A stretch of DNA of 64,000 nt from Zootoca vivipara (Eukaryota). The notes beneath the pieces were generated by a model. That model saw only the letters and a list, made by a program, of their open reading frames with translations. It made no database searches and was not told the DNA's origin. Both the position numbers and the translations under genes were made by a program. The DNA is taken from positions 12,214,001-12,278,000 of the forward strand of contig NC_083287.1 of NCBI RefSeq assembly GCF_963506605.1, written 5' to 3'. This document shows positions 13,486-48,682 of the stretch, one piece after another (within the stretch, counting starts at the first letter, position 1; each line of letters begins with the position of its first letter).

Positions 13486-14559
13486 ATGGACGATTCTTCC
13501 ACGATGCCAGATTATGAAATAAGCACAACTTTTGACTATTCGGGTTTAGTATCCCTAGTCATTGACAAAAATGTGAAAAGATTCACCTTTTATTTTGTGC
13601 CACCGCTTTACTCTTTGGTGTTCATATTTGGCCTGCTGGGCAACTCACTGGTGGTTCTGATCCTCATCAGATACAAGAAACTCAAGAGCATGACCGATAT
13701 CTACCTGCTCAATTTAGCCATCTCGGACTTGCTTTTCATCTTCTCGCTCCCATTTTGGGCTTACTACGCAGCGCACGAGTGGATATTTGGAGATGCAATG
13801 TGCAAAATTCTCTCTGGGATCTACTGCGTAGGCTTCTACAGTGGAAGTTTTTTCATAATCCTTTTGACTATCGATAGATACCTGGCCATCGTCCATGCCG
13901 TGTTCGCATTAAAAGCCAGGACGATCACCTATGGCACCTTCACAAGCGTTGCCACTTGGGTGGTGGCCTTATTAGCCTCTCTGCCAGAATTTGTATTTCA
14001 TCATGTTCAAATGGAATCTGAGAGCCACAGCTGTACCATTCATTATCCCACCCAAAAGGAAAAAGAATGGAAGCAATTTATAACTTTGATGAAGTTCATT
14101 TTGGGCCTAGCCATTCCTGCAGTCATTATTATCTTCTCTTACATGCAGATTATAATGATTTTGATTAAGGGTAGAAATCAGAGAAAGCAGAAGGCTTTCA
14201 AGCTTATTGCTGTGATCATGGTTGTTTTTTTCCTCTTCTGGATGCCATTCAACATTGCCCTGTTGGTGCGGACCTTTCAAGATTCATTTTTCCCATCTAA
14301 CTCAGAGAATAATATTGAGGGCAAGGTAACTTTAGGAATTGAAGTCACAAGAGTAATTGCTCTGGTTCACTGTTGCATCAACCCTGTGATTTATGCCTTT
14401 CTGGGTGAAAGATTTCGGAAATATATCTCTATCTTTTTCCAAAAGTGCATGTTAGTTCTTCTCTGTAGGCTCTGCCCTGGTCGAAATTATCCTATTTTGG
14501 AACGGTCTACTTCCTCCTATATAAGTTCAACAGAACATGACATTTCTATTGGTTTGTGA
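13486..14559 (+). CDS. C-C chemokine receptor, CCR5/CCR2-like, paralog A (357 aa, single coding exon)
   Basis: 7TM ORF with [43 protein letters not shown] and C-terminal ISIGL. Likely start is AAG-ATG-G at 13486; the track's TTG start lies in the intron/acceptor region. Confidence 0.93.
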   Translation: MDDSSTMPDYEISTTFDYSGLVSLVIDKNVKRFTFYFVPPLYSLVFIFGLLGNSLVVLILIRYKKLKSMTDIYLLNLAISDLLFIFSLPFWAYYAAHEWIFGDAMCKILSGIYCVGFYSGSFFIILLTIDRYLAIVHAVFALKARTITYGTFTSVATWVVALLASLPEFVFHHVQMESESHSCTIHYPTQKEKEWKQFITLMKFILGLAIPAVIIIFSYMQIIMILIKGRNQRKQKAFKLIAVIMVVFFLFWMPFNIALLVRTFQDSFFPSNSENNIEGKVTLGIEVTRVIALVHCCINPVIYAFLGERFRKYISIFFQKCMLVLLCRLCPGRNYPILERSTSSYISSTEHDISIGL

Positions 14560-14612
14560 AGTGATTTCCAGTTGTCTTTGTCCATCTTTTCTTTCTAAAC
14601 ACTTTAGTTGGT

Positions 14613-14848
14613 TAGGGTTGCCATACATCCGGGATTTCCAGGACGTAGCTGGAATATAGCAGTCAGAAACATTGTCCGGGGGGAAATCGCTTAAATGTCC
14701 AGGCAAATCCGTACGTATGGCAATTCATGTCGGGAGTCTAGTTTGGGGCAAGTTTTCTTAAAGCTGCTTCTTCTTTTTTGAGATTTTGCAAAAGAAGCTC
14801 AACAACTCTTGCGTCCAGATTTTCACTTTTTGAAATTTGCCAACCCTA
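14613..14848. mobile_element. hAT-type MITE in the 3'UTR of CCR paralog A
   Basis: TIR TAGGGTTGCCA / TGCCAACCCTA; duplicated GTTGGT flanks; absent at the homologous site behind paralog B. Confidence 0.8.
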
Positions 14849-15392
14849 TGTTGGTATATCGGACCAAAGTATGTCAGACTGCTAAGGGGGAAATGAAAAC
14901 AATATGTTAGGATACTGTATAACCTTTGGAGGGAAACCATTCCTGTGCCCCTTCCCCCTTGGGGCTCCTGTGGGGGAAGGGAGCAGGCAGATCTGGTAAG
15001 ACATATTTTGATGAACTACAATTCCTGTTCTGATAGGTGGTGCAAAACTGCTCACACAAATTATTGAAAAATACTGAGTTTGTACAAATAAATGCCGAAC
15101 TCTAGCTTTGGAAGTCAGTTGTATCAGGAAAGTGAAGACAATTCCTATCAAATTTCTCTCAATATGAGATGCAGAAATGGATCCAAGTATCACGAAGCCC
15201 AGGATGTTAATGAGTTATCTCTGCCATTATCTGGTCTTCCAATTGAGGGAGCCATAGGGACAGGTTCATATGGACATCTGAAGCAGCCTTAAGTGGGCCA
15301 GAACATTGGTCCATTATTAACCCAATACCTGGATAGGCTGCAGCTGATTCAGGACTTCAGGCTGAGTTTTTCTCAAGTCCTGCTACCAGAAG

Positions 15393-19392: not shown

Positions 19393-20700
19393 GTACCCTG
19401 CCCATCCGGCTGGGTCTTCCCAGCCACTCTGGGTGGCTTCCAACAAAGATTAAAAATACTGTACATTAAAATGTCACACATTTAAAACTTCCCTAAACAG
19501 GGCTGCCTTCTAAATGTCAGGTTTATCTCTTTGACATCTGATGGGAGGGCATTCCACAGGGCGGGTGCCACCACCGAGAAGGCCCTCTGCCTGGTTTCCC
19601 TGTAGCTTTGCTTCTCGCAGTGAGGGTACCACCACAAGACCCTCAGCGCTGGACCTCAGTGTCCGGGCAGAACGATGGGGGTGGAGACGCTCCTTCAGGT
19701 ATACTGGGCCAAGGCTGTTTAGGGCTTTAAAGGTCAGCACCAACACTTTGAATTGTGCTCAGAAACGTACAGGGAGCCAATGTAGGTGTTTCAGGACTGA
19801 TGTTATATGGTCTCGGTGGCCACTCCCAGTCACCAGTCTAGCTGCCGCATTCTGGATTAGTTGCCGTTTCCAGGTCACCTTCAAAGGTAGCCCCACGTAG
19901 ACTGCATTGCAGTAGTCCAAGCGGGAGATAACTAGAGCATGCACCGCTCTGGTGAGAGAGTCCACTGGCAGGTAGGGTCTCAGCCTGCGTACCAGATGGA
20001 GCTGGTAGACAGCTGCCCTGGATACAGAATTGACCTGTGTCTCCATGGACAGCTGTGAGTCCAAAATGACTCCCGGGCTGCGCACCTGGTCCTTCAGGGG
20101 CACAGTTATCCCATCCAGGGAGTCCTCTACACCAGCCTGCCCCCTGTCCCCCACGAACAGTACTTCTGTCTTGTCAGGATTCAACCTCAATCCATTAGCC
20201 GCCATCCATACTCCAACCACCTCCACGCACTCACACCGGACCTTCACTGCCTTCACTGGTTCTGATTTAAAAGAGAAGTAGAGCTGGGTGTCAGGGATGA
20301 TCCAGTGGCTTCCGGTTCCCCAGAGGGGAAACTGGCCGGGGGGGGGGGGGAGAGACATTGTCAGGAGACTCTCGTGGTGATTGTTGTGAAGAGAGGAAGC
20401 CCCGTCAGACCAGACCCGGAGGCAGGTATGCTCTACAAACAACGACTAAGCCTGCCTCCTCGGTAATGACATGGTCTAGTCTTAGCGTAACTCCTCCTCC
20501 TGCCCATGATCACTGAGATTGGATGTCCCAGTGCACCCCCCCCGGTGGAACTTGCCATTCTATTGGCTGGGGCCCACTCCCAGGCAACCCTGATCCCGCC
20601 CCTTAGAAACAAAATGCAAACTACTGTATACAACAACCAATAAAACAATAAAACAATAAAAAACAAAAACAAAACAACAGTTATACTAAAATTAACCCCC
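19340..20700 (-). mobile_element. L2 LINE: 3' RT/tail portion (to ~20293) joined to a probable 5' portion
   Basis: DTQLY...LRLNPDKTEVL...SRLDYCNAVYVGLP...QNAAARLVTG; L2 tail cccagccggatgggcagggta(TAA)n. Confidence 0.85.
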
Positions 20701-25971: not shown

Positions 25972-27030
25972 ATGGACAATTTTGCCATGATGCCAGATGA
26001 TGAAACAACTTTTGACTATGGTCCGGATACGGCCCCAGTTCACAGCGAGGCGGGAAAAACATTTGCATCTAATTTTGTGCCACCGCTTTACTCTTTGGTG
26101 TTCATATTTGGCCTGCTGGGCAACTCATTGGTGGTTCTGATCCTCATCAGATATAAGAAGCTCAAGAACATGACTGATATCTACCTGCTCAATTTAGCCA
26201 TCTCGGACTTGCTTTTTATCTTCTCACTCCCATTTTGGGCTCATTATGCAGCCCGCGAGTGGGTATTTGGAGATGCAATGTGCAAAATTCTCTCTGGGGT
26301 CTATTGTGTAGGCTTCTACAGTGGAAGCTTTTTTATCATCCTTTTGACTATCGATAGATACCTAGCCATCGTCCACGCAGTGTTCGCATTAAAAGCCAGG
26401 ACGATCACCTATGGCACCTTCACAAGCGTCGTCACTTGGGTTGTGGCCTTATTAGCCTCTGTGCCAGAATTTATATTTCACCATGTTCAAAAGGAATCTG
26501 AGACCTACAAATGTACCATTCATTATCCCTCTGAAAATGAAAAAGAATGGAAGCAATTTCTAATTTTAATGAAGTTCATTTTGGGCCTAGCTCTTCCCGC
26601 AGTCATTATTGTCTTCTGTTACATGCGGATTATAAAGATTTTGATTAAGGGTAGAAATGAGAGAAAGCAGAAGGCTGTCAAGCTTATTTCTGTAATCATG
26701 ATTGTTTACTTCCTTTTATGGATGCCATAAAACATCACTCTTTTGTTGCAGACCTATCAAGATTCAGTTTTCTCATGTGGCTTAAAAAATGATTGTGAGA
26801 GCAAGTTATCTGTAGCCATTGCTGTGACAGAGGCAATTGCTATGATCCACTGTTGCATCAACCCTGTGATCTATGCCTTTGTGGGGGAAAAATTTAGGAA
26901 ATATCTCTCTATTTTTTCCCAGAGGTGTATGTCAGCTCTCCTCTGTCCAGGTCGCGATCACCCTCATTTAGACCGGTCTACTTCATCCTATACCAGTTCA
27001 ACAGAACATGACATTTCTGTTGGTTTGTGA
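25972..27030 (+). pseudogene. C-C chemokine receptor CCR5-like, paralog B, with a single premature stop (TAA 26728-26730) in TM6
   Basis: ORFs 25918-26730 and 26743-27030 are in the same frame. TAA replaces the TAC (Tyr of WMPYNI) seen in paralog C. Otherwise intact, 352 aa, ending ISVGL. Confidence 0.88.
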
Positions 27031-34396: not shown

Positions 34397-35464
34397 ATGG
34401 ATGATTATATTGATTTGCCAGAAGATTATGGTCTAACCACATCTTATTACTATGATACGGGAGTAGCCCCAGTCCGCATCTTGGCAGGGAAATCATTTGC
34501 ATCTTATGTTGTGCCACCACTTTACTCTTTGGTGTTCATCTTTGGCCTGCTGGGCAACTCACTGGTGGTTCTGATCCTCATCAGATACAAGAAGCTCAAG
34601 AACATGACCGATATCTACCTGCTCAATTTAGCCATCTCGGACTTGCTTTTCATCTTCTCGCTCCCATTTTGGGCTTATTACGCAGCGCACGAGTGGATAT
34701 TTGGAGATGCAATGTGCAAAATTCTCTCTGGGATCTATTACGTAGGCTTCTACAGCGGAAGTTTTTTTATCATCCTTTTGACTTTCGATAGATACCTGGC
34801 CATCGTCCATGCAGTCTTCGCATTAAAAGCCAGGACGATCACCTATGGCACCTTCACAAGTGTCATAACTTGGGTTGTGGCCTTATTAGCCTCTGTGCCA
34901 GAATTTGTATTTCACCATGTTCAAACGGAATCTGAGACCTACAAATGTACCATTCATTATCCTTCAAAAAATGAAAATGATTGGAAGCAATTTCTAACTT
35001 TAATGAGGGTTGTCTTGGGCCTAGCTCTTCCCGCAGTCATCATTGTTTTCTGTTACATGCAGATTATAAAGATTTTGATTAAGGGTAGAAATGAGAGAAA
35101 GCAGAAGGCTGTCAAGCTTATTTCTGTAATCATGATTGTTTACTTCCTTTTATGGATGCCATACAACATCACTCTTTTGTTGCAGACCTATCAAGATTCA
35201 ATTTTCTCATGTGGCTTAAAAAATGATTGTGAGGGAAAGTTATCTGTAGCCATTGGGGTGACAGAGATAATTGCCATGATCCACTGTTGCATCAACCCTG
35301 TGATCTATGCCTTTGTAGGGGAAAAGTTTAGGAAATATCTCTCTATCTTTTTCCAGAAGTGTACATTAGTTCCTCTCTGTCCAGGTCGCGATCACCCTAG
35401 TTTAGACCGGTCTACTTCCTCCTACATGAGTACAACAGAACATGAACTTTCTATTGGTTTGTAA
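34397..35464 (+). CDS. C-C chemokine receptor CCR5-like, paralog C (355 aa)
   Basis: Intact 7TM ORF with DRYLAIV and NPVIY. Acceptor ttctttattctcag ends at 34388, followed by GGAAGAAG-ATG. Tyr/acid-rich N-terminus. Confidence 0.94.
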
Positions 35465-47605: not shown

Positions 47606-48682
47606 ATGTCCATTACTATGAGCACATCAGACTACGGAGATGTAACAACCACAGAATACATTTATGACGAAACAGCAGAACCATGCCCAAGTGACAATGT
47701 TAATGAATTTGCTTCCCAGTTCCTGCCACCGCTTTACTCTTTGGTGCTCATATTTGGCTTGCTGGGCAACTCACTGGTGGTGCTGATCCTCATCAGATAT
47801 AAGAAACTCAAGAACATGACCGATATCTACCTGCTCAATTTAGCCCTCTCGGACCTGCTTTTCATCTTCACACTCCCATTTTGGGCTTATTACGCAGCCC
47901 ACGAGTGGATATTTGGAGATGCAATGTGCAAAATTCTCTCTGGGATCTATTATGTAGGCTTCTACAGCGGAAGTTTTTTCATAATCCTTTTGACGATCGA
48001 TCGATATCTAGCCATCGTCCATGCGGTGTTTGCATTAAAAGCCCGGACAGTTACCTATGGCATCCTCACAAGCGTTGTCATGTGGGGCGTGGCATTCCTA
48101 GCCTCTGTGCCGGTATTGGTCTTCAACAGATTACAAAAGGAAAACGATCGTTCAGTGTGCACGCCTCATTTTTCTTATGAAACTCAGATCGGCTGGAACC
48201 AGTTCTTTACACTGAAAATGAACCTTATAGGCCTGATATTTCCAATGATCGTCATGACCTTCTGTTATGCACAGATCATAAAAACTCTAATGAAATGCAG
48301 GAATGACAAGAAGAGCAAAGCGGTCCGGCTGATTTTTATCATCATGATAGTTTATTTCATTTTTTGGGCCCCGTACAACATTGTTCTTCTGCTACGGACA
48401 TTCCAAGATGCATTTGATCTCAGTAATTGTGCCTCTATTAGTAATTTGGCTATAGCAGCACAAGCGACAGAAACAATTGCAATGGCTCACTGCTGCATCA
48501 ATCCTGTGATCTATGCTTTTGCTGGCGAGAAGTTCAGAAAATATGTTTGCTGCCTTTTCCGAAAGCATGTGGCTCTCCACCTTCCAAAAACATGCCTCTC
48601 TCTGTATACAGAGCCTCTGGAACGTGCCAGTTCCACATACTCCCAGTCTACTGGGGAGCATGACATGTCAGCGGTATTGTAG
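47606..48682 (+). CDS. CCR5: C-C chemokine receptor type 5-like, paralog D, canonical (358 aa)
   Basis: EPC N-terminal Cys, TLP (TxP) motif, [16 protein letters not shown] (Glu7.39), tail [14 protein letters not shown] resembling human CCR5; acceptor attgcag|agaacaagATG. One-to-one orthology within CCR1/2/3/5 cannot be proven from this window, so the symbol is provisional. Confidence 0.85.

Follow-up and report, generated by a model that had tools for sequence, protein, structure and literature searches.

This locus raises the question of what kind of receptor results when residue 7.39, the most familiar anchor in the pocket of CC chemokine receptors, is changed from Glu to Arg in one member of a tandem gene cluster. 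Glu7.39 (E283 in CCR5) is a contact of maraviroc. The window analysed here, a stretch of 64,000 nt from the genome of Zootoca vivipara (a lacertid lizard, as the closest named proteins of a protein search indicate), contains four CCR-like genes in tandem, all on the forward strand (paralogs A to D; Table 1), and the genome locus reads in the order XCR1 (reverse strand), A, B, C, D and TOPBP1. The true XCR1 is a separate, adjacent gene about 23 kb upstream of A (E 4.6e-89 to human XCR1). A fifth paralog, E, is present in Podarcis (P0008, P0132, P0133), with Glu7.39, no Cys in ECL3 and a short C-tail (326 aa); a tblastn search of the Zootoca genome found neither paralog E nor CCRL2 remnants between XCR1 and TOPBP1, and this absence, with the stop codon in B, marks birth and death of genes in the cluster. 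The stop in B appears to be an allele or an assembly error, because a full-length intact protein matching B (P0131) has Tyr at 6.51 and intact B orthologs are also on record. Between A and B, an open frame on the reverse strand (19759-20445) resembles a fragment of a LINE reverse transcriptase, and further repeats surround A.

Table 1. Genes of the receptor cluster and residues of paralog A, with positions in the window
Feature	Position	Strand	Basis
Paralog A CDS, CCR2/5-group receptor, 357 aa, open frame	13486..14559	+	ORF, PDB sequence matches, fold
Cys114 = 3.33; common to paralog B and the Rhineura gene	13825..13827	+	
DRYLAIV motif, intact, from residue 130	13873..13893	+	
Lys203 = 5.42; basic in lacertid A, B, C and E; adds to basic pocket	14092..14094	+	
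Phe255 = 6.51, TTC; same codon in sample X12	14248..14250	+	
Arg262 = 6.58; Gln in B, C and E; Arg in all A rows, also in D	14269..14271	+	
ECL3 without Cys; two Cys there in B and C; loss common with paralog E	14275..14322	+	
Glu286 = 7.36, GAA, one turn above Arg7.39	14341..14343	+	
Arg289 = 7.39, AGA	14350..14352	+	11 residues before P300 = 7.50; Arg in 6/6 A rows
Leu293 = 7.43; Leu in all A rows	14362..14364	+	
NPVIY (NPxxY), intact, from residue 299	14380..14394	+	
Paralog B, Glu7.39, TAA at the 6.51 codon (26728-26730) in the assembly	25972..27030	+	
Paralog C, Glu7.39, open frame	34397..35464	+	
Paralog D, Glu7.39; a canonical CCR (Cys in N-terminus and ECL3) from a separate squamate clade	47606..48682	+	
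TOPBP1 exon, gene closing the cluster downstream	58468..58650	+	E 3.7e-35

The best matches of A among PDB sequences (phmmer) are CCR1 (E 1e-114) and CCR5 (8e-112), the predicted model (pLDDT 70) has seven long helices and a helix 8 with CCR5 and CCR1 as nearest folds, and only CCR clusters were returned for it by the ESM Atlas. The preliminary description had read A as an open frame with intact DRY and NPxxY motifs, and the frame and both motifs were confirmed; the P5.50, Y5.58 and D2.50 motifs are intact as well, and A retains Tyr1.39, Trp2.60, Tyr3.32, Trp6.48 and an acidic, Tyr-bearing N-terminus. Its Cys residues lie at 106, 114, 183, 296, 297, 321, 327 and 330 only, including the TM3-ECL2 pair (C106, C183). 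Two family-typical features are lacking in A: Glu7.39, replaced by Arg289, and the disulfide from the N-terminus to TM7/ECL3, with Cys absent at both places. By sequence alignment R289 corresponds to the TM7 Glu of human CCR5 and CCR1, and the AGA codon, the Glu three residues earlier and the motifs VTEA, VTEI and ATET of B, C and D (all with Glu7.39, GAG or GAA) were found as first described. With CCR5, CCR1 and the sauropsid CCR2/5G receptors A shares the best sequence and fold match, the type of locus after XCR1, DRYLAIV and NPxxY, but it differs from the CCR2/CCR5 group in having Arg for Glu7.39, Leu for Met7.43, Arg6.58 and Lys5.42, in the missing N-terminal/ECL3 disulfide, and in belonging to a squamate-specific clade; it is not a one-to-one ortholog of CCR5.

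The Arg is not private to this assembly. A protein search with A gave 461 matches at E <= 1e-100, and among the best 120 of these, the 118 homologues that remain once A and the truncated B are set aside have Glu (112), Arg (3), Gln (2) or Lys (1) at 7.39. When further members of the protein clusters are included, Arg7.39 occurs in Lacerta agilis (P0002) and in three species of Podarcis, P. muralis (P0003), P. raffonei (P0121 and P0123) and P. lilfordi (P0122), and Arg7.39, Arg6.58 and Leu7.43 are found together in all six A rows (Zootoca and the four named species). Another P. muralis protein with Arg7.39 (P0004), counted among the three Arg of the 118, was excluded from the ortholog counts as an apparent chimera, with an E-type N-terminus and a duplicated stretch of TM6. 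A contig from a second sample of this organism (X12) spans 14341-14939 with two differences, both 3' of the stop codon, and a second contig spans 14109-14325 of A with none. Four runs from three other organisms cover the A-type TM6-TM7, and among the differences listed (all but 18 rows) none falls at 14341-43 or 14350-52; these organisms (B-D) are possibly among the named species and are not counted as extra species. An in-frame deletion of 12 bases lies in the A-type ECL3 of organism B (runs X14 and X20; window 14305-14316). In the protein searches no A ortholog was seen in snakes or in lacertids other than Lacerta and Podarcis, and a second search with residues 165-357 of A gave 12 proteins and no new A-type ortholog. 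The chance that Arg7.39 is an assembly or sequencing error, or was copied from XCR1 by gene conversion, is negligible: XCR1, close by, does carry Arg at the same position, but the bases of the second sample and the four named species rule out the error, and the codons (AGA in A, CGC in XCR1) and a DNA identity of 57% over residues 281-310 rule out the conversion.

A tree built from the C-terminal half (59 rows) unites the six A rows in a single clade (95/95), which lies within a squamate clade (100/99) and is sister to Podarcis paralog E with its Glu7.39. On this tree Arg7.39, Arg6.58 and Leu7.43 can be placed at one origin on the lacertid A stem, and the change from Glu (GAG/GAA) to Arg (AGA) takes at least two base changes. 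In a second tree (27 rows) A lies inside the CCR1/2/3/5 radiation (98/97), and a clade uniting A with CCRL2 is rejected (AU p = 3.7e-6; 27 rows), which rules out A as a CCRL2 ortholog; A as an XCR1 ortholog is ruled out too, since A groups with the CCRs and XCR1 is a separate neighbouring gene. Basic or otherwise altered residues at 7.39 also appear in other members of the squamate clade, with Lys7.39 and Glu7.36 in Phrynocephalus forsythii (P0016), on a separate branch, and Gln7.39 in Salvator (P0018) and Hemicordylus (P0048). Beyond A, B and C the clade includes P0005, P0009-P0016, P0018, P0048 and P0120. In the open papers and preprints searched we found no literature on this squamate CCR clade or on lacertid Arg7.39; a survey of 18 species reports CCRL2 only in mammals and three CCR2/5-group genes in the anole (PMC3568907).

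Over residues 41-150 (window 13606-13995) the TM1-TM4 DNA of A, B, C and D is 89-99% identical, including the distant D, against 42-90% in other parts, and A is 91-99% identical to B and C over residues 41-170. We read the TM1-TM4 identity as a sign of gene conversion among the paralogs, and exchange with B and C by this route may account for the low TM1-4 divergence of A. In mammalian CCRs, gene conversion and positive selection on extracellular parts have reportedly been found.

Several residues had been named as marks of a remodelled pocket, and they fared differently. The pocket is indeed remodelled towards basic, and what sets A apart is Arg7.39, Arg6.58 and Leu7.43, common to all lacertid A orthologs seen; Met7.43 is found in 113 of the 118 homologues (among the best 120 of 461 matches). 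Phe6.51 is present in Zootoca A, but it is not an innovation of A: it is private to Zootoca among the A orthologs (Tyr in 5/5 named orthologs), all four runs of other organisms have a Tyr codon, and Phe occurs in 59 of the 118 listed homologues, commonly in birds and turtles. The PYNI motif with which A had been contrasted does not hold for B, owing to its TAA codon. Cys3.33 is present but not specific to A, and the same applies to Glu7.36, which stands beside Glu7.39 in Rhineura, Phrynosoma, Sceloporus and Anolis; because of this co-occurrence in other squamates, Glu7.36 is probably ancestral rather than a shifted replacement for Glu7.39. The lack of N-terminal and ECL3 Cys in A is real, but the N-terminal loss extends to B and C and indeed to 33/33 rows of the squamate clade. 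Most rows of this clade have two Cys in ECL3 instead, which may form a disulfide inside the loop in place of the usual bridge between TM1 and TM7. A, E and four other rows lack this pair, which is missing on several separate branches. A crocodilian CCR (P0055, P0084), on a separate branch, also has no N-terminal and ECL3 Cys.

By residue count over listed positions, which is not an electrostatic model, the pocket of A is the most basic of 30 rows, with a net charge of +4, or +3 if the Glu in the column labelled 4.60 (actually 4.59) is counted, and the same count gives +2 for B and C and 0 for D and E (before the correction for Glu4.60). Besides Arg7.39 and Arg6.58 the basic residues of A are Lys1.28, Lys5.35 and Lys5.42, and we take 5.42 to face the pocket by analogy with I198 of CCR5. 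Glu7.36 may be a partner of Arg7.39 and may partly offset its charge.

In a survey of the best 150 representatives at 50% clustering, of which 94 had a readable TM7 motif (102 motifs), we counted 55 Glu, 15 Arg and 4 Lys. The records of 10 of the 17 basic-7.39 proteins were consulted: two are CCRL2 clusters, three are XCR1-like, three are 'CCR3-like' proteins of fish or sharks, one is a CCR9 and one is CCR6-like, and the named relatives with a basic residue are mostly labelled chemokine receptors. CCRL2 has Lys in the possum (P0168) and Arg in a deer cluster (P0194/P0301). Within Zootoca itself, XCR1 (L041) has Arg7.39 with Asp7.36, and receptors that we label from their motifs have Gln7.39 (CCR4-like L005, G000:C12:10358440-10359411), Tyr7.39 (CCR7-like L009) and Thr7.39 (L007). 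XCR1 resembles A as a G-protein-coupled chemokine receptor with Arg7.39 and, in Zootoca, an acidic residue at 7.36, but it belongs to another lineage, uses another codon and has HRY/LRY in place of the DRY of A, the rest of whose pocket is CCR-like. In the Gi complex of human XCR1, R273(7.39) binds the backbone carbonyl of XCL1 Gly2, not Glu4 (PMC11621518).

Our preferred reading, plausible but held tentatively, is that A would be a G-protein-coupled chemokine receptor with shifted ligand selectivity, which arose as a lacertid-specific duplicate of a squamate CCR2/5-group receptor. The acidic, Tyr-containing N-terminus of A would dock the core of the chemokine, whose own N-terminus would then enter the net basic pocket; there Arg7.39 would hydrogen-bond to backbone carbonyls, like R273 of XCR1, so that a chemokine N-terminus with acidic residues would be preferred, with Glu7.36 perhaps offsetting part of the charge. 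The ligand would most likely be found among the expanded lizard CC chemokines. In Zootoca a CC-chemokine cluster of 130 kb lies on contig C15 (G000:C15:16.75-16.88 Mb; L011-L035) and comprises at least nine CC-chemokine exon-2 frames with diverse N-terminal segments, which are the candidate ligands, and some of these chemokines have Asp or Glu directly before the CC motif (e.g., L034); signal-peptide exons were located for only part of the loci. Among 30 chemokine loci read in the Zootoca genome, no XCL gene was identified.

The reading of A as a signalling chemokine receptor is favoured by residues that are fixed in a single clade, by an intact DRYLAIV, unlike in CCRL2, and by XCR1, which signals through Gi with Arg7.39 (PMC11621518). 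Of 23 human chemokine receptors only 70% have Glu at 7.39, and the exchange E7.39K leaves CXCR2 with about 75% efficacy, but it makes CXCR1 non-functional (PMC10425996). CXCR6 is described as a chemokine receptor without the TM1-TM7 disulfide (PMC12435897); it resembles A in having no N-terminal and TM7 Cys, as does its Zootoca copy (L042), and differs in Glu7.39 and in its distant lineage. Against this, A lacks that disulfide, whose region Kleist et al. describe as the general hotspot of chemokine recognition. The rodent Ccr1l1 is likewise a lineage-restricted orphan duplicate in a CCR cluster with its signalling motifs kept, but it has retained Glu7.39 (E288; PMC7949164).

The mutant data bear on a further reading, in which A is a chemokine binder with weak or no signalling that would serve beside its paralogs as a decoy, presenter or dampener. 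In CCR5, E283 contacts the chemokine backbone, the contacts of Y251 are water-mediated, and E283A and M287A each lower Emax by 40-70% with EC50 unchanged (PMC8208711); both of these TM7 relay positions (7.39 and 7.43) are altered in A, which argues for weak signalling and against our preferred reading, as does the silent CXCR1 mutant. CCRL2 (ACKR5) points the same way, having a basic 7.39 and a non-Met 7.43 and being non-signalling (PMC2556791). We nevertheless find a weakly signalling A distinctly unlikely, because A keeps the DRYLAIV motif that atypical receptors usually lose (PMC2556791), together with all other microswitch motifs checked, and because XCR1 signals with Arg at this position.

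The preliminary description had gone further and proposed A as a signalling-competent receptor for an acidic or non-chemokine ligand. Its signalling motifs are indeed intact; the step away from chemokines is not supported, given the precedents of XCR1 and CXCR6. Charge reversal alone does not imply an acidic ligand, because E283 of CCR5 contacts backbone and E283A lowers efficacy but not EC50; the acidic residue can also serve as an anchor of basic antagonists, as E291 does in CCR2 (PMC10680698). That A has gone over to an acidic ligand outside the chemokines, such as chemerin, a different peptide or a lipid acid, and signals in response to it is very doubtful. The nearest model is CCRL2, a fast-evolving offshoot of the mammalian CCR cluster with Lys/Arg7.39 that binds chemerin without signalling and has no DRYLAIV (PMC2556791, PMC10792014), and the basic pocket of A and its missing N-terminal and ECL3 Cys fit such a switch. 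CCRL2 and A have in common that they are cluster-derived CCR duplicates with a basic 7.39 and a non-Met 7.43, but CCRL2 has lost DRY (HRY/QRY), has kept the N-terminal and ECL3 Cys and was found in mammals only in the 18-species survey, whereas A keeps DRY and has an independent origin. Simulations locate the contacts between CCRL2 and chemerin in the N-terminus and ECL2 of the receptor, mostly away from the TM bundle (PMC12728923), so the basic 7.39 of CCRL2 need not be ligand-driven. Furthermore, A keeps Tyr1.39, Trp2.60 and Tyr3.32 and the acidic N-terminus typical of chemokine receptors, and the labels of its basic-7.39 relatives speak against the switch as well. The boldest form of this idea, that A is the third independent origin of a basic 7.39 after XCR1 and CCRL2 and a signalling-competent lizard counterpart of CCRL2, which left the chemokine system for chemerin or an acidic ligand with its G-protein switches kept, is in our view very unlikely to be right.

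Whether A is under constraint at all is a separate matter, and the evidence for selection is mixed. A could be a redundant duplicate under relaxed constraint, in which drift fixed Arg7.39 at an early stage and the residue matters little for function; we consider this a serious rival, possible if somewhat unlikely. The A orthologs are 85-88% identical, compared with 93-96% for the orthologs of B, C and D, so that protein divergence is 2-3 times as high, and a rough neutral simulation predicts 87.5-90% identity, with a neutral rate taken from the same gene region and therefore partly circular. In the 3' half of A, pN/pS is 1.31, 0.93 and 0.52 (13/3, 9/3 and 12/7; from the listed differences only, which are incomplete and not independent). 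The conserved WxFG motif of ECL1 has changed in L. agilis and in the two P. raffonei copies, the P. lilfordi model is 104 residues short at its N-terminus and ends in an unusual C-terminus, and the cluster shows birth and death. All of this favours relaxation and weighs against our preferred reading, as does the possibility that the TM1-4 similarity stems from gene conversion. A neutral gene would remain free of stop codons on the three branches with a probability of 0.06-0.10 (substitutions only; frameshifts would lower the figure), and a single invariant TM site is the norm among the three A orthologs (163/190 TM columns invariant).

On the other side, five of the six A rows are full-length with open frames, only one of the five ortholog models being truncated, so that the orthologs are mostly not pseudogenes, and no indel seen breaks the frame. 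Every A row has an intact DRYLAIV, and DRY, ICL1, ICL2 and NPxxY are invariant among the A orthologs. Variable columns among the three A orthologs are concentrated outside the cell (33/86 extracellular versus 27/190 TM, p = 1.5e-5), with the N-terminus (15/36) and ECL2 (11/26) far above the rest; B, C and D have the same extracellular bias at about half the level of A. Within a single short stem three pocket residues were replaced, one of which needed two base changes, and this too argues against relaxation. Expression adds little to this picture: none of the listed data sets containing the gene is recorded as RNA, three RNA runs of 2026 from the same organism (about 6% of each, tissue unspecified) gave 3, 0 and 1 reads on A, and contigs from runs that are only guessed to be RNA (X12, X17, X18 and X20) cover the A-specific TM6-TM7 or 3' half, a weak hint that A is expressed.

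Paralog A is a genuine pocket variant, spread across lacertids, of a familiar kind of receptor and not a new system. A basic residue at 7.39 has evolved repeatedly in one gene cluster, in XCR1, in CCRL2 and in lacertid A, with Lys in one agamid gene, and the natural exchange of Glu for Arg beside sister genes that are about 75% identical to A and all bear Glu (B, C and E) offers a ready test of whether 7.39 governs selectivity or efficacy. If A bound a non-chemokine ligand, it would be a model for the start of CCRL2 before its loss of signalling; if instead it is no more than a relaxed duplicate, it would be a case of ordinary birth-and-death evolution.
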